A stretch of DNA of 64,000 bases from Spirochaetia bacterium (GCA_963675665.1 OY776510.1:2912001-2976000); one strand, 5' to 3'. Numbered from the stretch's first letter, positions 16,834 to 61,374 are shown. Program-made: numbers and translations. Notes: a model not told the origin generated them from the sequence alone.

Positions 16834-16862
16834 TTGACATTTAAGTAAAGTGCCAATAGGAT
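16834..16862 (+). promoter_or_regulatory. Sigma70-type promoter upstream of the riboswitch
   Basis: TTGACA (16834-39), 17 nt spacer, TAGGAT (16857-62); predicted transcription start just before the aptamer. Confidence 0.7.
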
Positions 16863-16869
16863 AAATTAC

Positions 16870-16972
16870 ATTACTCCGAACCTTTAATTCCTAAAGCTTT
16901 TTATAGCCATGGATAAAGGTCGCTGGGTACGATGGGAAACGATCGTGCCTTCCGTGTTTGAAAAGGAGGATC
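16870..16972 (+). ncRNA. Moco RNA motif (molybdenum/tungsten cofactor riboswitch candidate), P3-less variant
   Basis: P1 CTCC/GGAG; P2 ACCTTTA/TAAAGGT with a CCTAAAG...CATGG tetraloop-receptor-like element; P4 GGTACGAT-GGGAAACG-ATCGTGCC with a GAAA loop; P5 and 3' end CCTTCCGTGTTTGAAAAGGAG resembles the E. coli moaA leader; lies upstream of a WtpA/ModA-like gene. Confidence 0.85.
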
Positions 16973-17116
16973 TGAAAACATTTCTCATGTTAAATAAAAC
17001 AATCTTGTTTTAAATCTCGTTATAAATTTATCCTGCAAGCGAAATGTCATTGATCCGGGATGTCTGAAAAAAACGGAAGGCTGTTAAATCTTTTCCAGTA
17101 ACAAAATGCTCCTCAC

Positions 17117-17149
17117 TGCCTTGCTTTACTTTACAGCAGGTGTTTTTTT
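17117..17149 (+). terminator. Possible attenuator (riboswitch expression platform)
   Basis: Imperfect stem CCTTGCT...AGCAGG followed by a T7 run, about 27 nt before the ATG. Confidence 0.35.
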
Positions 17150-17176
17150 ATCAGGAATTTTGTCCCGGAGGTTTTT

Positions 17177-18487
17177 ATGTCATTGTATCGAAAGTATTTG
17201 CCCGAACTGAAGAGTACCACTCTGTTTCAGTCTATTGAAGATGAAGAACTGATTGCGTTACTGGAGGTAATGCATCCTGAAATTGTGTGCCGTAAGGCAG
17301 GAGAACGTGGAATGCCGCCTATTGATATGGAGAACGGTCTGTTCTGTTTTGTCCTTAAAGGAAAACCCCTGGATGAACTGGAACCAAGGCTGGATGCATA
17401 TAACATGCCAGGACCTGCCGAACCCGGAATGATGATGGGCGAGATTCCCTGCCTGTCGGAAATGCGCAAAAGCAGGGCTCCGAGAATAAAAATGAAAGGC
17501 CCTCCTCACGGCGGTCCTAAAAATGAAGAGTTTGATTTATATATGCTCCGGATGAGCGGCGAGATGTTAACCGGATTCTACGGCAGCCGATACAGCAAGG
17601 CACAGGGGATTATGCTCCGTAACTTTTTAGGCATTCTCGCCCAGAAGGTTACCGATGTCCGAAAGGAAAAGGCGGAAACTGTCGCTGCTTTTGAAGCGGA
17701 GCTTGCTCCATATCGTCTGATTGTTTCCTGTGCCGGCGTATCAATGCGGCTTGTCAAAGCCGCAGCCGGAGAGTGGAACAGGATTCACCCGGAGCTGCCG
17801 GCCGTAGTTAATCCCGGCGGTTCAGTCGATCTGATTCGTAATTTTATTAATGGTGAACCCTGTGATCTTTTAATTTCAGCTGATGATGAAATCATGCGTT
17901 CGATGCTGCTACCCGAATACATTGACGGATACCGAATATGGGCTGGTAATAAAATGGTTGTAACCGGCGAAGATATCAATACGGGGAACTGGGAGGAGAA
18001 ACTTCTTGCTGAAGATGCAACCTTCAAACACAGGAACCCGTATGGTGATCCGGGAGGTTACCGCGCTGTTATGGCAATGTTGCTGGCTGACGCATATAAG
18101 CCGGGTCTTTCTGCTCGTCTTATGAATCATCCGGGCCATATCGGTATGGAAAAAGATCCGGGGCCGTTCGGCAATATGAAACCGGCAAAATATGAATTTA
18201 CCTACTTTTCAGGAGCAAAGGCCTCCGGCTGTAATTTTGCTGAATTGCCGCCGGTAATGGATCTTTCTGATCCCGAACTGGCCGGTGAATATGCCAAAGT
18301 CAGTTTTGCCGTAGACGATAAAAACAGTGTAACAGCGACGCCTGTTTCTCATGCACTGACAATTCCAGGGACTGCGCTTCACAAGGAGGCAGCAAAAGAA
18401 TTTGCCGGACTGTTCCTGGCTGTTGACAAGGAACCCGAGGGTTTCCTGCGTCGCGACGGCATTGTCGGCGAAGACCCTCTTAAATAA
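17177..18487 (+). CDS. Fusion of an N-terminal Crp/Fnr-like cNMP-binding domain and a C-terminal WtpA/ModA-like tungstate/molybdate-binding domain
   Basis: N-term LKSTTLFQSIEDEEL...VLKG...GEI...RNFLGILAQK is Crp-like without an HTH. C-term GGSVDLIR, CDLLISAD, NKMVV, DPGGYR and ALTIP is WtpA-like. No signal peptide. Confidence 0.7.
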   Translation: MSLYRKYLPELKSTTLFQSIEDEELIALLEVMHPEIVCRKAGERGMPPIDMENGLFCFVLKGKPLDELEPRLDAYNMPGPAEPGMMMGEIPCLSEMRKSRAPRIKMKGPPHGGPKNEEFDLYMLRMSGEMLTGFYGSRYSKAQGIMLRNFLGILAQKVTDVRKEKAETVAAFEAELAPYRLIVSCAGVSMRLVKAAAGEWNRIHPELPAVVNPGGSVDLIRNFINGEPCDLLISADDEIMRSMLLPEYIDGYRIWAGNKMVVTGEDINTGNWEEKLLAEDATFKHRNPYGDPGGYRAVMAMLLADAYKPGLSARLMNHPGHIGMEKDPGPFGNMKPAKYEFTYFSGAKASGCNFAELPPVMDLSDPELAGEYAKVSFAVDDKNSVTATPVSHALTIPGTALHKEAAKEFAGLFLAVDKEPEGFLRRDGIVGEDPLK

Positions 18488-18507
18488 ATTATATAAGGAG
18501 TAAAAAA

Positions 18508-19647
18508 ATGAAAAAACTAATTACAATCTTACTGTTGACGCTTTGCCTTGCGGTACCGCTGATTGCGGCCGGTCAGACTGAAAGTCCAGCAACGGAAGCA
18601 GTCGGGGAGACCTTTGTCGAACAGGCGGAAAGAAGTGTTACTGTTACTGATATGAGCGGCGACACCGTTACGGTTGTCGGAGAAATTAAGAAAATAGTCA
18701 ACCTGTGGCCGGCAGGAACTTCTTCTTTTTTTGTCATGGGCGCGGGCGATTTAATAGTCGGTCTTGCCGTAAACAAACCCGGTACAATGAATTCCTGGAC
18801 GCAGCTGTTTTATCCCGATTGCGTCAATATTCCCGCTCTCGGCGGTGTTACCCCCTCTGTTGAAGATATCATCAAGCTGAACCCGGACCTGGTTATAATT
18901 CATCCGACTACCGCAAAAGCCGGTTTTGCAGAACAGATTCGCGGTGTTGGAATTCCGGCTATCAATATCAATTTCAGCGACTATAAAACAATGATGCAGG
19001 CTTACACTGTTCTCGGAGAAGTTCTCGGAGGAGAATATCAGGAAAGATTAAGTACCTGGTGTAATGCTGTAGAAAACAAACTGGCAAATGTAAGAAGGCT
19101 GACAGCAGGTATTGATCAAGCGGACAGGCCGGTTGTTTATTATATTTCCGGCCAGACTGATTCGCTGACCGCGACCATGTCTGCCGACAGTATTATTAGC
19201 GATTGGGTTGAGTCTACCGGCGGAGTTTACGCAGCCGGGCTTATGTCGATACCTGCAAAGGAAATGACGGCAGAAGCGGTTTTCAGTCTTAATCCTGATG
19301 TGATCGTTTGCGGAGGGGTATATCAGCATATTGAGAAGAATGCCCTTGAAACTTCGGAAGGCTGGAAAGAATTGAATGCAGTAGTAAACAATAGGGTCCA
19401 CAACAATCCCTACGGCTGTTTTAACTGGGACCGTTTCGGCCTTGAAAGTCAGTTGCAGATTAATTATGCACTTATGAGTATTCAACCAGAGATAGCAAAA
19501 GCAAACGGAATCACAAAAGAATCGATGATCGAAGAAATTATTGAATTCTACAGGACTTACACTGATTATGAATTAACCCTGATCCAGGCTGAGAATATGC
19601 TTGGCGGCCTGCGCTTCGACGGCACAGCTGAAATTCCTGTTCAGTAA
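18508..19647 (+). CDS. ABC transporter substrate-binding protein, class III (BtuF/FepB/MolA-like)
   Basis: Signal peptide, VTVTDMSG, EDIIKLNPDLV, NPYGCFNWDR motifs. Confidence 0.88.
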   Translation: MKKLITILLLTLCLAVPLIAAGQTESPATEAVGETFVEQAERSVTVTDMSGDTVTVVGEIKKIVNLWPAGTSSFFVMGAGDLIVGLAVNKPGTMNSWTQLFYPDCVNIPALGGVTPSVEDIIKLNPDLVIIHPTTAKAGFAEQIRGVGIPAININFSDYKTMMQAYTVLGEVLGGEYQERLSTWCNAVENKLANVRRLTAGIDQADRPVVYYISGQTDSLTATMSADSIISDWVESTGGVYAAGLMSIPAKEMTAEAVFSLNPDVIVCGGVYQHIEKNALETSEGWKELNAVVNNRVHNNPYGCFNWDRFGLESQLQINYALMSIQPEIAKANGITKESMIEEIIEFYRTYTDYELTLIQAENMLGGLRFDGTAEIPVQ

Positions 19648-19656
19648 TCATTTTTT

Positions 19657-20745
19657 ATGATGCAGACCGATCGCAGAAGCAACAGCCTTTCCGCAGATGG
19701 CGGAAAGGTCGTCTTTCATAAGAAGCAATTAGCCAGTACTTTTACATTTACAGGCATTCTTATCCTGTCTGTAATTCTGTTATTCGTTGTTTTTACGGCA
19801 TCTCTGGCAATCGGCAGGTTCGGAGTTCCTTTCGGCTGTACATTAAGAATCCTGTTTTCAAAGATATTTACTGTCGAACGGGTTTGGAACAATATAGAAG
19901 AGGCAGTGGTAATGGACCTCCGGTTGCCGCGAACAACAGCCGCAATCATAATAGGAGCATCGCTGGCTCTCTCCGGGGCAACATATCAGAGTATTTTCAA
20001 AAATCCCATGGTATCGCCCGACCTGCTTGGTGTATCTTCAGGCGCCTGTGTGGGCGCGGCTCTGGCAATCCTGATGAGTGCCGGAAGCGCTGTAATTCAA
20101 GTCGGAGCTTTTGCGGGCGGTTTGCTTGCAGTAGCTGTAACGGTTACAATCCCGACATTGATTCGCAACAGTTCCACCACTGTTCTGGTCCTCTCCGGAA
20201 TCGTTATCAGCAGTCTGATGTCCTCAATCATGAGTATAATCAAGTTTGTGGCAGATACGGATACGCAATTGGCGGAAATTACCTACTGGCTGATGGGTTC
20301 GTTTGCATCAATTACTTTTACCCAGATGCTGCCTGTTCTGCCTGCCATTCTTGTTCCGGCAGTTATCATACTGCTAATGCGTTACAGGCTGAATGTGCTT
20401 TCGCTCGGCGATAAAGAAGCAAGATCGCTTGGAGTAAATCTTAGGACAACGCGGGGAATGTTCATTCTTTGTTCAACACTGATAACCGCCGGCTGCGTAT
20501 GCCTGTCCGGAACAATCGGATGGGTGGGCCTTATTATTCCACATACGGCGCGAATGATAATAGGTTCTGACAATAAAAAGATGCTCCCTGTTGCGATGAT
20601 TTTCGGAGGAATCTTCATGCTGATTATAGATATTCTTTGCAGAACGATAACCTCAGCTGAATTAAGGCTGGGTATTCTGACTGGAGTAATCGGCGCTCCG
20701 TTTTTTATTTTTATCCTTTTTAAGCAAAAGAAGCAAATAAAATGA
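19657..20745 (+). CDS. FecCD/BtuC-family ABC permease
   Basis: RLPR, FKNPMVSPDLLGVSSGA and GWVGLIIPH motifs. Confidence 0.93.
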   Translation: MMQTDRRSNSLSADGGKVVFHKKQLASTFTFTGILILSVILLFVVFTASLAIGRFGVPFGCTLRILFSKIFTVERVWNNIEEAVVMDLRLPRTTAAIIIGASLALSGATYQSIFKNPMVSPDLLGVSSGACVGAALAILMSAGSAVIQVGAFAGGLLAVAVTVTIPTLIRNSSTTVLVLSGIVISSLMSSIMSIIKFVADTDTQLAEITYWLMGSFASITFTQMLPVLPAILVPAVIILLMRYRLNVLSLGDKEARSLGVNLRTTRGMFILCSTLITAGCVCLSGTIGWVGLIIPHTARMIIGSDNKKMLPVAMIFGGIFMLIIDILCRTITSAELRLGILTGVIGAPFFIFILFKQKKQIK

Positions 20746-21512
20746 TATTAGAAGTAAATAAACTGAGTTTTCATTATCATAACAGCCGTATGATTTTTCA
20801 AGACGTAGGATTCAGCGTAAACAAGGGAGAAGTACTGACGATTCTCGGAACAAACGGAGCCGGCAAATCAACACTTCTCAACTGCATTGCCAATCTCAGC
20901 AAACCGCAAACCGGAGAGATCCTGCTTGACGGGCAGCCGATGTCAAAGATGCATATTCGTGATGTTGCGCAGATTATCGGATACGTGCCGCAGATCCACA
21001 CTCCGGCATACGGCTATTCAGTGCAGGAGTATGTTGTTATGGGCCGTACACCGTATATAGGCGCTTTTTCATCGCCTGGTGCCGGGGATTACAAAATTGC
21101 CGATGAAGCGTTGGAGCGGATGGGAATTGTGCATCTTCGGGATAAACTGTATACGGAAATTTCAGGCGGGGAGCGTCAACAGGTTCTGATTGCCCGGGTA
21201 TTTGCTCAGAAACCGCAATTAATCCTCCTGGACGAACCGACGGCTCACCTGGATTACGGAAACCAGTATCGTGTAGTACAGATGATCCGAATGCTTGCTG
21301 AAGAAGGGTACGCGATGATAATGACTACTCATAACCCTGAGCACGCTTTCATTCTCAACGGAAAGGTCGCAATTCTCAATCGTGAAGGCGTTTTAGGGGT
21401 CGGCCGTGCAGTGGAAACCCTAAACGCGGAAACACTTTCGAATCTTTATGAGCTGTCAATAAAAACGATATACGACGACGATGCGAAACGTAATATCTGT
21501 ATTGTTTTTTAA
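20742..21512 (+). CDS. ABC ATPase (FecE/BtuD-like)
   Basis: GTNGAGKST, ISGGERQ and LLDEPT motifs. Confidence 0.94.
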   Translation: MILEVNKLSFHYHNSRMIFQDVGFSVNKGEVLTILGTNGAGKSTLLNCIANLSKPQTGEILLDGQPMSKMHIRDVAQIIGYVPQIHTPAYGYSVQEYVVMGRTPYIGAFSSPGAGDYKIADEALERMGIVHLRDKLYTEISGGERQQVLIARVFAQKPQLILLDEPTAHLDYGNQYRVVQMIRMLAEEGYAMIMTTHNPEHAFILNGKVAILNREGVLGVGRAVETLNAETLSNLYELSIKTIYDDDAKRNICIVF

Positions 21513-21577
21513 CATTATCTTTACAACATAAAAACTAAATATTAATATTCACCAATAAAAAAATAAAAGGAGCTAAA

Positions 21578-22405
21578 ATGAAATTTAAAATCTCTGTATT
21601 GGCTGCGGCCATTATTTTTATCATTATACTTTTGAGTTGCACAACAAATTCCGGATTGACAGTAAAAAAAACCGGAGCACTGTTTAAAAAACCCGAATGT
21701 GTTGTTTTTGATGAGCAAAACCAATGTTTATATATAAGTAATATCAACGGATCCCCGTCAAAAAAAGACGGCAATGGTTTTATTTCAAAGACTTCAACGG
21801 AAGGGGAGATTATAGAGCAGGAATGGATTGACGGACTTGATGCACCAAAAGGCATGTTTATAAAGGACGAGATTCTTTATTGTACGGATATTAATAATTT
21901 AGTATTGATTGATATTACGATTGGCGAAATCGTTAAAAAAACAGAAATTCCCGGCTCGCTTTTTCTTAATGATTTGGTAGTTACTAATGATAAAACTATT
22001 ATCATAACAGATTCAAAAAAAGATTCAGTGTTTAAAGTTGATGATCAGAAAATCAGTATGTCGAACGTAAAACTTAAAGGTGCAAACGGTATTTATTATG
22101 ATGGGGAAAATATATATTTGGGTGCAAATGGAGATATTAATATATACAACCAGGAAACCGATTCAATAGAAGTTTTTCAGGCGGGTGTCGGAAATGTCGA
22201 CGGAATTATAGTAACAAAGAGCTGTGTTTTATTTACAAATTATTTTAACAGGTTTTCCGAAATTGAAAATAATAAAACTGTTGATATAGACAAGGGCATT
22301 CCATTTATCGACTGCAGAACGGACTTTTGTCAATTGACGGATGGTACTGTTGTTATCCCGGATTTCGATTCCAGATTGTTTTTTTATGAGAAGGTGTTAA
22401 GATAA
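21578..22405 (+). CDS. SMP-30/gluconolactonase-like beta-propeller lipoprotein
   Basis: Lipobox LLSC; PE.V, DGNGFISK, APKGM, FLNDL, ANGI and DGI propeller motifs. Confidence 0.7.
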   Translation: MKFKISVLAAAIIFIIILLSCTTNSGLTVKKTGALFKKPECVVFDEQNQCLYISNINGSPSKKDGNGFISKTSTEGEIIEQEWIDGLDAPKGMFIKDEILYCTDINNLVLIDITIGEIVKKTEIPGSLFLNDLVVTNDKTIIITDSKKDSVFKVDDQKISMSNVKLKGANGIYYDGENIYLGANGDINIYNQETDSIEVFQAGVGNVDGIIVTKSCVLFTNYFNRFSEIENNKTVDIDKGIPFIDCRTDFCQLTDGTVVIPDFDSRLFFYEKVLR

Positions 22406-50724: not shown

Positions 50725-51903
50725 ATGGATAGAGTTTACCTTGATAATAATGCAACAACCCTGGTTGATCCCCTTGTAAAAGACGCGATGGACCCTTTTT
50801 TTACAAAAATGTACGGGAACCCCAATTCACTGCACAGTTTCGGCACCGAAATACATCCCTACATGAGTATTGCGCTTGACAGGTTGTACGATGGCATAAA
50901 TGCCGATGATAAGGATGATATATTCATTAACAGCTGCGCTTCCGAGGGAAATAATACAGTAATTAAGTCGCTTTATTTCGACAGTGTTCTTAACAGTAAA
51001 AAAAACCGGATGATCACATCTGCAATTGAGCACCCGGCTGTTTCTAATGTATATTTGTTTCTTGAAAAACTTGGTGTCGATGTGAAATGGCTCCCGGTTA
51101 ACAGCCAGGGAATTGTTGATCCTGCCGAATTGCGAAAAGCTATTGATCCGGATAAAACAGCGCTTGTGTCGCTTATCTGGGCAAATAATGAAACCGGCCT
51201 GATAAACCCGGTTAAAGAGTACGGTGAAATCTGCCGTGAGAACGGAGTAAAACTGCATCTTGACGGAGTTCAGGCTATCGGGAAAATTCCTGTCGATGTT
51301 CAGGATGTTGAAGTCGATTATCTGACCTTCAGCGCCCATAAGTTTCACGGCCCGAAAGGAGTAGGCGGTCTGTATGTCCGAAACGGCGCAGGCATAACTC
51401 CCCTGATCCACGGCGGCGAACAGATGAACGGAAAACGCGCAGGCACCATCAATACCGCTTTCATGATAGGTATGGGACTTGCGCTGGAACTTGCCGTTAA
51501 AAACCTTGATTATGAAGCCACCGAAGTCCGCAGACTGCGCGATAAACTTGAAGACGCCATTCTTGAAATTGATGATGTCGAGGTTATTGGAAGCCGTGAT
51601 ATCCGGACGCCCAATACAATCCTGGCAAGTTTCAGGGGTATTGAGGGTGAAGCTTTCCTCTGGGATCTGAACCAGAAAGGAATAGCAGCATCAACCGGAA
51701 GTGCCTGCTCGTCGGAATCGCTGGAATCAAATCCGACCTTCCAGGCAATGCAGATAGGCGCTGATCTGGCCCATACAGGTATGAGATTCAGCCTGTCGCG
51801 TTATACAACTGAAGAAGAAATTGATTATGCTGTCGATGTTATCAAAGGTGCAGTAGAAAGATTGCGGAGAATCTCATCGACGAGCAACAGGGAATATATC
51901 TGA
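50725..51903 (+). CDS. nifS: Cysteine desulfurase NifS
   Basis: YLDNNATT, SAHKFHGPKG and STGSACSS motifs. Confidence 0.95.
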   Translation: MDRVYLDNNATTLVDPLVKDAMDPFFTKMYGNPNSLHSFGTEIHPYMSIALDRLYDGINADDKDDIFINSCASEGNNTVIKSLYFDSVLNSKKNRMITSAIEHPAVSNVYLFLEKLGVDVKWLPVNSQGIVDPAELRKAIDPDKTALVSLIWANNETGLINPVKEYGEICRENGVKLHLDGVQAIGKIPVDVQDVEVDYLTFSAHKFHGPKGVGGLYVRNGAGITPLIHGGEQMNGKRAGTINTAFMIGMGLALELAVKNLDYEATEVRRLRDKLEDAILEIDDVEVIGSRDIRTPNTILASFRGIEGEAFLWDLNQKGIAASTGSACSSESLESNPTFQAMQIGADLAHTGMRFSLSRYTTEEEIDYAVDVIKGAVERLRRISSTSNREYI

Positions 51904-51988
51904 GTTGGAGTAATTTGGAAAGCGGAATTTTTCAAATTAAATTACAGTAAACCTGCAACCGTGCAGGAAGCTATATATTGGAGAAGTC

Positions 51989-52954
51989 ATGGCTAAAAAT
52001 GATTTAATCGGCGGAGCTTTATGGGAAAATTATTCCGATAAAGTCAGCGACAGAATGAACAACCCGCGGTTTATGGGTGAAATCTCCGAGGAAGAGGCTG
52101 AAGCGAAGGGCGCAAAACTGATAATTGCAGATTTCGGAGCTGATTCATGCGGAGATGCTGTAAGACTTTACTGGATGGTTGACCCTAAAACCGATATTAT
52201 AATTGATTCCAAATACAAGAGCTTCGGATGCGGAACAGCTATCGCATCAAGTGACATAACGGCTGAACTATGCATAGGCAAAACTGTCGATGAAGCGGTT
52301 AAAATTACCAATATAGATGTTGAAAAAGCATTGCGTGATACCCCCGACAAGCCGGCAGTTCCTCCCCAGAAAATGCACTGTTCGGTAATGGCTTACGATG
52401 TAATAAAAAAAGCAGCTTCATTATACAAACAGGTTGATATGTCGGTTTTTGAAGATGAGGAAATTGTTTGCGAATGTGCAAGGGTCTCCCTGAGCACGAT
52501 CAAGGAAGTTATAAAGCTTAATGATTTGAAAACCGTTGAAGAGATTACCCAGTACACCAAGGCGGGAGCTTTCTGCAAATCCTGCATTAAACCCGGCGGG
52601 CATGAAGAGAGAAAATTTTATCTTGAAGATATTCTTCGTGATACGCGTGCCGAAATGGAACGCGAAAGGCTTAATTTCAGCAGCGAAACACAGACCTTCA
52701 GCGAAATGACCCTGATTCAGAAACATAAAAAAGTGGACAAGGCGATAACCGAATCGATTCTGCCGATTCTGAATGCGGACGGCGGAAGCGTTGAAGTCGT
52801 GGATATGCAGGAAGTGGACGATTATACCGACGTATATATCAAATACAAGGGGGCTTGCGCGGGCTGTGCGGCAAGCAGAACCGGTACATATGAGGCAATC
52901 GCCGACACGCTGAGAAAGAAAGTCGACGAATCAATCAGGGTCCACATTCTCTAA
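51989..52954 (+). CDS. nifU: Fe-S scaffold NifU (IscU + BFD-like + Nfu domains)
   Basis: CGD, FGCG and MHC; CEC...CKSC; DGG...GACAGC. Confidence 0.93.
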   Translation: MAKNDLIGGALWENYSDKVSDRMNNPRFMGEISEEEAEAKGAKLIIADFGADSCGDAVRLYWMVDPKTDIIIDSKYKSFGCGTAIASSDITAELCIGKTVDEAVKITNIDVEKALRDTPDKPAVPPQKMHCSVMAYDVIKKAASLYKQVDMSVFEDEEIVCECARVSLSTIKEVIKLNDLKTVEEITQYTKAGAFCKSCIKPGGHEERKFYLEDILRDTRAEMERERLNFSSETQTFSEMTLIQKHKKVDKAITESILPILNADGGSVEVVDMQEVDDYTDVYIKYKGACAGCAASRTGTYEAIADTLRKKVDESIRVHIL

Positions 52955-52965
52955 ACACCCGGAGG

Positions 52966-53901
52966 GTGGAAATGAAAGCTCAGAATGTAACCGAACTGAT
53001 CGGAGGGACTCCTCTGGTCAGGCTTAACCGTATATGCGGTAATGCAGAAGTTTATGCAAAACTTGAATATTTCAATCCCGGAAGTTCGGTAAAAGACAGA
53101 ATAGCACTGGCTTTAATTGAAGACGGAGAAAAAAGCGGATTAATAAACAGTGAAACTATCATTGTCGAACCCACAAGCGGCAACACAGGTATAGGTCTTG
53201 CGATGGTGTGTGCCGTCAAAGGATACAGGCTGATACTGACTATGCCTGAAACCGTCAGCCCTGAGCGAAGGCAGATCCTTGCCGGATTCGGGGCGGAACT
53301 TGTTCTGGTGTCCGGGAAGGGGGGAATGACGCCTGCAATTGAAAGAGCCCGTGAGATTGCAGCTGAAAATCCGGACAGTTATATGCCGGGACAGTTCTCA
53401 AACCCCGCAAATCCCGCTGCGCATGAGTTTACAACGGCCCGTGAAATATGGGATGATACCGGCGGAAAGATAGATATACTGGTTTGCGGTGTCGGCACCG
53501 GAGGAACAGTCAGCGGTACTGCAAGAGGGCTGCGCCGGCTGAACCCTGATCTGAAGGTTATTGCAGTGGAACCCGCGGATTCACCCGTGATTACCCAGCA
53601 CTTGAACGGACAGAAGCCGGCACCAGGCAGCCATGTCATTCAGGGAATAGGCGCAGGTTTTATTCCTGAAAATCTTGATATTTCACTAATCAGTGAGGTA
53701 ATATTGGTCACAAATGCCGATGCCCTGGAATATGCCAGGCGTCTGATGAAGGAAGAAGGCATTTTCGCCGGAATATCAGCGGGGGCGGCGGCCCGGGCTG
53801 CAGTTGAGATTGCCTCGAAGCCCGAAAATAAAGGTAAAACGGTTGTTTTTGTTGTTCCTGATACCGGTGAAAGATATCTGTCGCAGAATATATTCAGCTG
53901 A
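52966..53901 (+). CDS. cysK: Cysteine synthase A
   Basis: SVKDR, PTSGNTG, GVGTGGT and ERYLS motifs; start may be ATG 52972. Confidence 0.95.
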   Translation: MEMKAQNVTELIGGTPLVRLNRICGNAEVYAKLEYFNPGSSVKDRIALALIEDGEKSGLINSETIIVEPTSGNTGIGLAMVCAVKGYRLILTMPETVSPERRQILAGFGAELVLVSGKGGMTPAIERAREIAAENPDSYMPGQFSNPANPAAHEFTTAREIWDDTGGKIDILVCGVGTGGTVSGTARGLRRLNPDLKVIAVEPADSPVITQHLNGQKPAPGSHVIQGIGAGFIPENLDISLISEVILVTNADALEYARRLMKEEGIFAGISAGAAARAAVEIASKPENKGKTVVFVVPDTGERYLSQNIFS

Positions 53902-53919
53902 TTAATTTGGAGAGTAAGA

Positions 53920-54813
53920 ATGTCAGGTTTCAAAGAAGAATTCAATATCAAGGAAATAACGGAAGAACTGTGCAAATCTGAATCTTACAGCAAGGTTTAC
54001 CTCAGATCCAGCGAGCACGATATTCATATGCCGTCAATTGATGAACTTGCAAAAGCGGTTGAACTGCTGCGGTCGGTCATATTTCCCGGTTACTTCATCC
54101 ATTCGGAACTGCGCGAAGATACAATGCATTATTACATAGGGAGCAGTCTTGATAAATGTTTTGCAATACTTTCAGAGCAGTTGAAACGGGGATACTGTTT
54201 TGCGTGCTCTTCAGAGACGGTATGCAATTTCTGTGAAACCAGGGCTGAAGAAGCCGCAGCGCATCTGCTGAAACGACTTCCGTATATCAGACACATGCTG
54301 TCGACAGATGCCGAAGCCGCTTATGAGGGTGATCCTGCGGCAAAAAGTATAGGAGAGGCTATTTTCTGTTATCCAAGCATACGGGCCCTGACGAACCACC
54401 GAATTGCGCACGAACTTTATCGCTTCGGTGTTCCAATAATACCAAGGCTAATCAGCGAAATGGCTCATTCCGAAGCAGGAATTGATATTCATCCCGGGGC
54501 GGAAATCGACGAGCATTTTTTCATAGATCACGGTACAGGCACCGTAATAGGTGAAACTTCTGTTATCGGAAAAAATGTTCAGATTTACCAGGGCGTAACA
54601 CTCGGTGCGCGAAGTTTTCCCAAGGATGAAGACGGCAAACCAATCAAGGATATCCCGCGACACCCAATAGTAAAAGACGGCGTTATCATATATGCCGGAG
54701 CTACTGTGCTCGGTCGCGTAACTATCGGTGAAAATGCTATGATTGGCGGTAATGTCTGGATAACGCGCGATGTCCCTGCCGGCGAGAGGGTTATTCAGCG
54801 GCGGGCGGACTAA
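53920..54813 (+). CDS. cysE: Serine O-acetyltransferase (EpsC-type)
   Basis: GDPAA, IDIHPGA, IDHGTG, YQGVTLG and RHP motifs. Confidence 0.92.
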   Translation: MSGFKEEFNIKEITEELCKSESYSKVYLRSSEHDIHMPSIDELAKAVELLRSVIFPGYFIHSELREDTMHYYIGSSLDKCFAILSEQLKRGYCFACSSETVCNFCETRAEEAAAHLLKRLPYIRHMLSTDAEAAYEGDPAAKSIGEAIFCYPSIRALTNHRIAHELYRFGVPIIPRLISEMAHSEAGIDIHPGAEIDEHFFIDHGTGTVIGETSVIGKNVQIYQGVTLGARSFPKDEDGKPIKDIPRHPIVKDGVIIYAGATVLGRVTIGENAMIGGNVWITRDVPAGERVIQRRAD

Positions 54814-61057: not shown

Positions 61058-61374
61058 CTCCTATAAGAAATTCCTGCATGGATGCAGGTATCTGAGGGTG
61101 TAGTTTGAAAAGATATTTTCAAACTACTAAATGATAAAATAACACGGATGTTATTTTATCATTCCTCCTATAAAACTTTCCGCCATGGAGGGCGGTTTCA
61201 TTACAGGAAGTTTGCATCAGCAAACTTCAAAATGATAAAATCACAAGGAAGTGATTTTATCATTCCTCCTGTAAAACTTTCCGCCATGGAGGGCGGTTTC
61301 ATTACAGGAAGTTTGCATCAGCAAACTTCAAAATGATAAAATCACAAGGAAGTGATTTTATCATTCCTCCTGTA
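61058..61374. repeat. Structured 101-bp tandem repeat (about 2.4 near-identical units plus one diverged partial unit)
   Basis: ATGATAAAAT recurs at 61131, 61232 and 61333; each unit contains three hairpins. Confidence 0.9.

Follow-up and report, generated by a model that had tools for sequence, protein, structure and literature searches.

A Moco riboswitch operon of a Spirochaetia bacterium joins a cytoplasmic Crp-like/WtpA-like fusion protein to a type II ABC importer

A 64,000-nucleotide (nt) stretch of Spirochaetia bacterium DNA (GCA_963675665.1, OY776510.1:2912001-2976000; the window) carries a molybdenum cofactor (Moco) RNA motif that is followed on the same strand by four genes, the first encoding a cytoplasmic protein that fuses a domain of Crp/Fnr descent to a domain of WtpA descent, and the other three a type II ATP-binding cassette (ABC) importer. 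The RNA belongs to a known family, the four genes fall into known families, the C-terminal fusion domain has the fold of WtpA and the N-terminal one resembles Crp/Fnr proteins in fold, and the linkage of the genes is conserved among anaerobic bacteria. From these observations we infer a polarity for the switch, a cargo for the importer and a role for the fusion protein, and with about even confidence we take the operon to be a tungsten (W), or molybdenum (Mo), acquisition module that would be switched on when the pterin cofactor is scarce and in which the fusion protein would receive or sense the metal species in the cytoplasm. The arrangement is genuine and exceeds chance, and it extends an observation that has been published with a different interpretation.

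A P3-less Moco riboswitch precedes four co-oriented genes

The aptamer (16862-16984, + strand) matched the Moco RNA family RF01055 with 80.3 bits (gathering score 36, E = 7.4e-18) over the full model, positions 1-135, without truncation. The columns of the P3 stem are deleted in this alignment, which places the RNA in the W-cofactor (Tuco) subclass. The association of that subclass with W is a literature correlation: Regulski 2008 reported that 58 of 176 Moco RNAs lack P3 and that this correlates near-perfectly with use of the W cofactor (PMC2408646). Directly upstream lies a promoter-like site, TTGACA-17 nt-TAGGAT (16834-16862, +; 10 of 12 matches), which ends where the aptamer starts. One such site was seen in the 600-nt region against a mean of 1.6 in shuffled sequences, so that it is not significant alone and only its position argues for a promoter; a reading of the DNA made from sequence alone had named a promoter here, and its placement held up but its frequency did not set it apart from chance.

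The leader continues for 192 nt beyond the aptamer as the expression platform (16985-17176, +). Within it ACGGAAGGC (17073-17081) is a candidate for an anti-aptamer pairing, being the exact complement of aptamer bases 16947-16955, an imperfect hairpin (17114-17142) is followed by a T7 run (17143-17149), and GGAGG (17167-17171) stands five bases 5' of the ATG at 17177. That start codon opens the fusion protein gene (17177-18487, +; 436 amino acids (aa)), which matched SBP_bac_11 at residues 183-309 and the WtpA models TIGR03730 and NF003196. There follow, after spacings of 20 nt and 9 nt and then with a 4-nt overlap of the ATPase start and the permease stop, an exported class III substrate-binding protein (18508-19647, +; 379 aa; Peripla_BP_2, PF01497, 47.5 bits), a FecCD/BtuC-like permease (19657-20745, +; 362 aa; FecCD, PF01032, 290.9 bits) and the importer ATPase (20742-21512, +; 256 aa; ABC_tran, PF00005, 122.9 bits).

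The last three models all scored above their cut-offs in adjacent genes, which identifies a type II ABC importer, and the binding protein has a hydrophobic N terminus (Kyte-Doolittle 2.93 from residue 5). These matches bear out the sequence-only reading as to the riboswitch, the four co-oriented genes and a type II importer equipped with an exported class III binding protein of its own. A type I permease (BPD_transp_1), and with it a WtpB partner, was not found among the 59 open reading frames (ORFs) scanned in the window; because the scan covered these ORFs, the accompanying statement that modB and wtpB are absent holds within the window but does not extend beyond it.

The C-terminal domain is a cytoplasmic relative of WtpA

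The C-terminal domain of the fusion protein (17711-18487, +; aa 179-436) has a WtpA-derived periplasmic-binding-protein (PBP) fold with a remodelled pocket. Its WtpA ancestry was evident in a phmmer search of the PDB, in which the WtpA proteins MA_0280 and AF_0094 matched at E about 1e-25. An AlphaFold model made with 34 relatives aligned reached a predicted local distance difference test (pLDDT) value of 89.3. With E values between 6e-21 and 3e-20 and TMt of 0.68-0.74, Foldseek matched it to 3k6x, 2onr, 3cfz and 3cfx, which have the type II PBP fold of the archaeal ModA/WtpA class. With WtpA and archaeal ModA (2onr, 3cfx, 3cfz, 3cg1) the domain thus has sequence homology, fold and the Asp of the DPGGYR motif in common. 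The equivalog cut-offs for WtpA were not reached (TIGR03730, 106.1 versus 242.75 bits; NF003196, 99.1 versus 355 bits).

In agreement with the sequence-only reading, which had proposed a cytoplasmic protein without a signal peptide, the N terminus of the fusion lacks a hydrophobic segment (the highest 12-residue Kyte-Doolittle mean in the first 45 residues is 1.41). The WtpA-like domain begins at about residue 180, after a 40-residue helix, and shows none of the export features of WtpA. A quick maximum-likelihood tree divided 48 signal-less rows from 27 exported twin-arginine (Tat) lipoprotein WtpA sequences of haloarchaea by starred branches, and the N termini throughout the signal-less clade are without signal peptides.

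Intracellular use of a PBP fold for W or Mo has parallels in MoeA-PBP-like fusions, such as the 644-aa MoeA of Eubacterium limosum with its annotated molybdate-binding domain and a MoeA_C+PBP_like protein encoded in one of the related loci described below (L030), and in TaoR-type regulators, which combine a helix-turn-helix (HTH), a PBP-like domain and TOBE and have been treated as cytoplasmic PBP-like W/Mo modules (PMC11980592). These proteins use PBP_like (PF12727, TupA-type) with MoeA or an HTH as partner, whereas the module in the window is derived from WtpA and has a Crp-type partner.

The N-terminal domain traces to Crp/Fnr sensor domains

The N-terminal domain (17177-17710, +; aa 1-178) appears to be a diverged form of the Crp/Fnr sensor fold; it has a long C-helix (aa 137-176) but lacks an HTH. 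Pfam failed to connect it to any known family: none of 28 members matched cNMP_binding (PF00027) or another relevant model at E<=10. Matches to ATG7_N, DUF5601 and CBM-like_CFAP184 at that threshold were dismissed as chance. Modelled alone with AlphaFold2, the domain reached a pLDDT of 86.6 and consisted of a short helical start, few strands, a low-confidence segment at 100-120 and then the 40-residue helix that leads into the WtpA-like domain. All matches listed by Foldseek against the PDB were Crp/Fnr or other cyclic-nucleotide-binding-domain proteins, including GlxR, Mycobacterium tuberculosis CRP, HcpR, DNR, PKG and cyclic-nucleotide-gated (CNG) channels; the best E value was 1.4e-3 (none <=1e-3), with TM 0.3-0.6 and root-mean-square deviations of 8-9 Å. 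As modelled, the domain would share with the first four of these a long C-helix after the beta-roll region. In the ESM Atlas, 24 of 30 matches were cNMP_binding clusters at 0.90, a level that shuffled proteins reach in 4-10% of cases. An hhalign comparison with one Crp/Fnr protein of a related locus (L032) gave a probability of 0.14, a single-sequence template being a weak test.

Bridging homologues made the connection. A profile of the N domain run against 1.84 billion representatives found only 62 proteins. P0153 (E = 4.3e-14 to the profile) weakly matched HTH_Crp_2 (E = 5.9e-5) and cNMP_binding (8.5e-4), and P0174 (E = 1.3e-4 to the profile) matched cNMP_binding with 34.1 bits and HTH_Crp_2 with 39 bits, both above the Pfam cut-offs. 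Homology can thus be traced to bona fide Crp/Fnr members, and because P0153 and P0174 bridge the two groups we assign the N domain to a divergent offshoot of Crp/Fnr sensor domains from which the HTH has been lost. Unlike Crp/Fnr proteins, the fusion gave no HTH match and its helix runs straight into the WtpA-like domain.

What the family conserves is also different from Crp/Fnr proteins. The invariant residues of the N domain make up part of the helix and MP..EPGMMMGEIP.LS, a motif rich in Met, and the Arg that holds the cyclic phosphate is present only in close relatives of the window protein and not family-wide. The Crp/Fnr-like cNMP-binding domain of the sequence-only reading is therefore supported as to descent, by Foldseek, the ESM look-alikes and the bridging homologues, but not by Pfam. 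Its further suggestion that a second ligand exerts control, for instance a cyclic nucleotide, found no support, with no cNMP_binding match and no conserved phosphate-cassette Arg; nothing in these sequences indicates a cyclic nucleotide as the ligand. Two representative proteins, P0138 (748 aa) and P0139 (707 aa), carry the N domain at their C terminus behind an uncharacterised NTP_transf_5 nucleotidyltransferase domain, an architecture that hints at a nucleotide-related ligand.

The two modules recur in anaerobes next to Mo and W genes

A word-indexed search returned 225 homologues, named 'substrate-binding domain-containing protein' by NCBI and 'molybdate/tungstate transport system substrate-binding protein' by JGI, and one scan of species-representative genomes yielded 51 related loci (L001-L051) together with 29 ordinary WtpA loci. 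The hosts are anaerobes: Syntrophomonadaceae and other Clostridia, Peptococcaceae, Christensenella, Atribacterota, Dehalococcoidales and Spirochaetia, with Candidatus Adiutrix and other 'Deltaproteobacteria' metagenome-assembled genomes (MAGs) and one Mangrovibacter isolate. The WtpA-like domain is present in 47 of the 51 loci. N and C domains share one reading frame in 31 loci and lie in different frames in five (L035, L047-L049, L051), confirmed as separate genes in L047-L049; 11 loci have the C domain only, beginning directly at its first strand without a leader, and four have the N domain only (L044-L046, L050). The order is reversed in P0142, C then N, and tandem N domains also occur among the profile matches.

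Other partners were found as well. The C domain is fused to a class I S-adenosylmethionine (SAM) methyltransferase in L040 (1217-2893), L041 (6947-8614) and L043 (6986-8629), and a SAM methyltransferase flanks the WtpA-like domain in L029, L038 and L039; these enzymes weakly match CpaM, CbiT, TehB and arsenite methyltransferase models, and the L041 fusion adjoins a FecCD importer and a PF02441 flavoprotein. Two tandem stand-alone N genes (177 and 179 aa) lie directly 5' of a full-length fusion gene at L022 6428-8863/L050, with no importer genes nearby.

Type II importer genes adjoin the WtpA-like gene in 36 of the 47 loci, 32 with a FecCD match and four in which the contig ends beside the binding-protein or ATPase gene. 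Two gene orders occur, fusion first (L001-L020) and importer first (L024-L027, L030, L031, L033, L036). Rfam scans covered L001-L048 (45 with the C domain), with the sensitive mode run on 15 loci. RF01055 immediately precedes the operon that holds the family gene, in the same orientation, in 18 of the 45: in 11 it reaches the gathering score (L002, L008, L010, L012, L014, L016, L017, L023, L029, L032, L033), and in seven it scores 28-35 bits at the equivalent place (L001, L003, L004, L007, L009, L011, L015). It heads divergent importer operons in L034 and L037; L047 and L048 have no RF01055 at the gathering score. P3 is absent from the window aptamer, from both copies in L034 and from L037, and L012, L014 and L016 look P3-less from their length and alignment; in the low-scoring variants of Clostridia and Atribacterota, inspection by eye alone suggests a hairpin where P3 would stand. 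Right after the aptamers of L002, L008, L010, L012 and L017, inspection by eye found GC-rich inverted repeats followed by T-runs, which we read as intrinsic terminators.

Beyond riboswitch and importer, the neighbours include Mo and W genes. Type I transporters of the Mo/W type (SBP_bac_11 or PBP_like_2) occur in L032, L034 and L038, MoaA in L034 and L038, and a Nitro_FeMo-Co protein in L046, and in L044 (6986-8825) a stand-alone N gene (204 aa) overlaps the start of MoeA (MoeA_N + MoCF_biosynth) by about 30 nt. DUF364/DUF4213 genes adjoin the system in L032 and L034; DUF364 has been linked by context to Mo, W and Fe transporters and suggested to produce derivatives of pterin or flavin (PMC2954201), and a DUF364 gene of Methanococcus maripaludis has been linked to a modABC operon that is cofit with nifH (bioRxiv 10.1101/2024.03.05.583561). 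In L023 the WtpA-like gene adjoins a ZnuA/ABC-3 system. The riboswitch and the repeated, independent Mo and W neighbours link the family to Mo/W metabolism. The survey of the 51 loci thus strengthened a link that had been proposed from the window alone, and it associated the homologues with both the Moco riboswitch (18 of 45) and the type II importer (36 of 47).

In three 'Deltaproteobacteria' MAGs, N and C are separate adjacent genes within an uptake operon of diderm style that includes the FecCD importer. In L047 (605-9510) and L048 (4466-13140) a TonB-dependent receptor gene is followed by N, C and the genes for FecCD, ATPase, binding protein, ExbB and ExbD, with a TonB gene additionally in L047; L049 (277-5849) begins at the N gene and has a TonB gene behind that of the binding protein. 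In Pelobacter carbinolicus, TonB-dependent channels have been noted close to riboswitches for molybdopterin (PMC3543383).

The window operon itself shows mixed affinities. Its WtpA-like domain is closest to that of a Syntrophomonadaceae MAG (L001, 83% identity), and the whole fusion protein is 68-72% identical to fusions of other spirochaetes. Its riboswitch is of the high-scoring P3-less type of spirochaete loci (L012, L014, L016), unlike the low-scoring L001 variant. This pattern suggests horizontal transfer, or a mosaic in which leader and genes differ in origin.

A putative W or Mo acquisition module

The closest published parallel is in E. limosum, in which WOR1, TupABC, FocA and two FecCD-type 'Fe ABC' importers are each preceded by a P3-less riboswitch, five in all (PMC11725836). 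Like the operon in the window, FetABC1 and FetABC2 place a P3-less riboswitch, with a terminator hairpin in one case, upstream of a binding protein, permease and ATPase, of 365/348/259 and 346/345/258 aa against 379/362/256 aa in the window; the likeness is one of riboswitch class, gene types and sizes and not an orthology comparison. Unlike the window, these operons have no WtpA-like or Crp-like gene among the entries of Dataset S6, where fetABC2 is followed by an XdhC/CoxI cofactor-insertion gene (PMC11725836). The fetABC1 and focA leaders have terminators, and both transcripts rise under W limitation (Shao 2024, PMC11725836), which for fetABC1 is the polarity expected of a W-acquisition system.

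We base the polarity of the switch on these E. limosum data and on the terminator-type platforms of the relatives, and the leader in the window would accordingly be an OFF switch. The P3-less aptamer would bind the finished cofactor, upon which hairpin and U-run would stop transcription or hide the ribosome site; with the cofactor scarce, the operon would be read through. The exported binding protein and the FecCD/ATPase importer would then bring a W or Mo species into the cell, probably complexed (metallophore-bound or bulky) rather than as the bare oxyanion. The cytoplasmic two-domain protein may take over or sense the imported species and pass the metal towards MoeA-type insertion, or it may feed back on the importer.

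A complexed cargo is favoured because of the importer class, the weak MolA similarity of the binding protein and the TonB-dependent receptor sets. The likeness to MolBC-A of Haemophilus influenzae (HI1470-1472) is that of a Mo/W type II importer with a class III binding protein. The window's binding protein differs in that it matches MolA (HI_1472) with E = 0.0046 and 19.4 bits, rank 22 of 23 PDB matches, so that no MolA-specific relation is seen; MolBC-A is not known to have a cytoplasmic WtpA-like partner. Oxyanion, chelate and intact cofactor had all been put forward as cargo on sequence grounds. The chelate gains support from the TonB-dependent receptor and TonB genes across L047-L049 (ExbB/ExbD in two of them).

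More specifically, and only tentatively, the system could be dedicated to the uptake of W or Mo as a complex, a 'tungstophore/molybdophore' or a bulky species of anoxic habitats, with the WtpA-derived receiver handing the metal to cofactor synthesis and the Crp-derived domain tying this transfer to a signal from metabolism, which might be a cofactor intermediate that bears a nucleotide.

Several findings weigh against an acquisition module under cofactor control. The window's own terminator is weak: a consensus terminator scan of its leader found none, the hairpin having been missed because its loop is longer than 8, and the minimum-free-energy fold of 16940-17180 does not exceed that of shuffled sequences in stability (z -0.10). 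No W/Mo enzyme or cofactor-biosynthesis gene was found in the window. Among the relatives, 11 of 47 loci are without a type II importer (L006, L019, L022, L023, L028, L032, L038-L040, L042, L043), and 27 of the 45 scanned have no RF01055 directly upstream, the sensitive mode having covered 15 loci. The gene of Mangrovibacter yixingensis (L028 2083-8323) stands directly after pstS-pstC-pstA-pstB-phoU, in a locus with neither type II importer nor riboswitch, and its protein lies on a long branch in the quick tree. P3 is present in L010, L029, L032 and L033; since related operons stand under both riboswitch classes, the metal may differ between hosts and may be Mo in some.

The binding pocket belongs among these points. 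In an alignment of 34 family members with 28 haloarchaeal homologues, which carry twin-arginine lipoprotein leaders (RR..FL...AGC), all 34 members retain the DPGGYR Asp, which binds the metal in WtpA. In place of the first-loop Ser of 'HAGS', 30 members have Val and four have Cys; the 'PTGTE' segment, which holds the second metal-binding Glu and is invariant in the comparison set, is deleted in 34 of 34; the WtpA Tyr is replaced by an invariant His392; and the domain as a whole has a deletion of roughly 30 residues. Mapped on 2onk_E, the DPxGYR Asp is chain residue D125 and the Glu aligned to 'PTGTE' is E190, which we take to be Asp153 and Glu218, the two metal ligands of Archaeoglobus fulgidus ModA, at an offset of 28. 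Two acidic residues give the octahedral metal site (PMC11350598), and one of the two is kept in the family alignment. Because the WtpA pocket is not conserved, tungstate binding is an unsafe inference: the oxyanion-binding WtpA/ModA-like domain of the sequence-only reading retains its ancestry but not an assumable binding function. The missing signal peptide, WtpB partner and Glu segment, the exchanged Ser and Tyr and the separate clade all set the fusion protein apart, and judged by its sequence it is not a WtpA.

Alternative readings of the importer and the fusion protein

The remaining points against a W or Mo cargo concern iron. Shao 2024 interpret the riboswitch-controlled importers of E. 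limosum as iron transporters and report about 12-fold more cellular iron on lactate (PMC11725836). The window system could likewise be an iron, heme or siderophore importer, placed under a W-cofactor riboswitch so that iron follows tungstoenzyme demand, with the fusion protein as a passenger, for example a cytoplasmic W/Mo buffer; we consider this unlikely. Pfam and NCBIfam do put all three importer parts nearest to iron, heme and B12 systems, the closest NCBIfam models of the permease being BtuC, F420-0 permease and FecC, but the family matches are far below the curated cut-offs and so give the class and not the substrate. The binding protein, whose best PDB match is 4ovk (E = 6e-19), is nearer to uncharacterised, siderophore and heme binders than to MolA; it also matches 9HRJ, 9HT5, 9HRP and 9IF3, and a literature search on those codes returned nothing relevant. 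The TonB-dependent receptors of L047 and L048 are likewise nearest to heme/siderophore subfamilies.

Set against these similarities, 36 of 47 loci link the importer with a WtpA-derived protein, whichever of the two gene orders they follow, the importer's neighbours are Mo/W genes, and Pfam scans of the related loci gave no match to a recognised iron-regulator or siderophore-biosynthesis family. A switch that is repressed by the cofactor and induced by W limitation, as reported for E. limosum, also has the wrong polarity for supplying more iron when tungstoenzymes are made. A literature search combining the accession RF01055 with iron and ABC transporters returned no paper.

Alternatively, the fusion protein could regulate transport, sensing a cytoplasmic oxyanion (perhaps with a second ligand at the N domain) and inhibiting or gating the ABC ATPase, as the TOBE domain of ModC does or PhoU on Pst. 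This we regard as rather improbable. The WtpA-like module does stand beside differing oxyanion importers, mostly type II, type I Mo/W systems in L032, L034 and L038, and pstSCAB-phoU in L028; its N domain derives from an allosteric sensor family; and trans-inhibition of ModBC is established (cited within PMC11484787, a thiomolybdate paper which, in the part considered here, mentions only Mod transporters). The stand-alone N gene next to MoeA in L044 and the fusions of the C domain to SAM methyltransferases (L040, L041, L043) point to metabolism instead, and the pocket is without one of the WtpA metal ligands.

Least probable, in our estimate, is pterin salvage, in which the finished W/Mo cofactor or one of its precursors would enter by type II uptake and be kept in the cytoplasm by an enlarged WtpA-like pocket. 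The W/Mo pterin cofactor is highly labile, MoaA and MoeA are encoded beside the system in related loci, so that the hosts appear to make the pterin themselves, the metal-ligand Asp is kept throughout the family and no pterin-binding family was matched, even though type II importers typically carry large cofactors, the ligand of the riboswitch is the cofactor itself, the deletion of about 30 residues removes part of the small oxyanion pocket, XdhC/CoxI follows fetABC2 (Dataset S6, PMC11725836) and DUF364 neighbours are proposed pterin or flavin enzymes (PMC2954201).

Other features of the window

Downstream of the ATPase gene, an ORF at 21578-22405 (+; 275 aa) has a lipoprotein-like start, a hydrophobic stretch followed by Cys, and no significant family match. 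We do not count it among the operon genes, since a promoter-like site (21520-21549) precedes it and none of the related loci contains a homologue.

The remaining genes of the window are housekeeping. Three tandem copies of the TD-2 small RNA (RF03162, 55-56 bits against a gathering score of 48.7) lie about 100 nt apart at 61072-61369 (+), just upstream of a gene for a YbaK-type editing domain; the name of this RNA family suggests a spirochaete akin to Treponema. At 50725-54810 (+), an Aminotran_5 gene of the cysteine desulfurase type, a NifU_N + BFD + NifU scaffold, a PALP enzyme and a hexapeptide transferase form a cluster that looks like a unit for Fe-S assembly and cysteine synthesis.

Discussion

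Mod, Tup and Wtp are the described families of tungstate and molybdate transporters, MolBC-A is an additional type II case, and several users of these metals lack all of them (PMC9246946). The architecture in the window had been taken as uncharacterised. For the Crp-like/WtpA-like fusion protein this stands, as no description was found in the full-text literature searched, a scope that excludes subscription journals; it does not stand for the surroundings, since FecCD importers under Tuco riboswitches (PMC11725836) and TonB-dependent channels (PMC3543383) have been published.

Our analysis defines two unnamed modules. One is a cytosolic WtpA-like clade with an AGV loop, without the Glu segment and with His in place of Tyr; the other is a Crp-derived domain marked by the Met-rich MP..EPGMMMGEIP.LS, with no HTH, no Pfam match and no conserved cyclic-phosphate Arg. 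The two are found repeatedly in one chain, as separate genes, in reversed order and attached to other enzymes. The acquisition module that we favour offers a testable alternative to the published reading, in which W-cofactor riboswitches control iron uptake in gut anaerobes. If uptake of a metal complex were true, the 'iron transporters' found under W-cofactor riboswitches would be misnamed systems for metal-cofactor supply. If widespread, the system would be a fourth route for W and Mo, controlled by a riboswitch, of type II and with a TonB-dependent receptor in diderms, and it would add a new cytoplasmic step to the handling of these metals.

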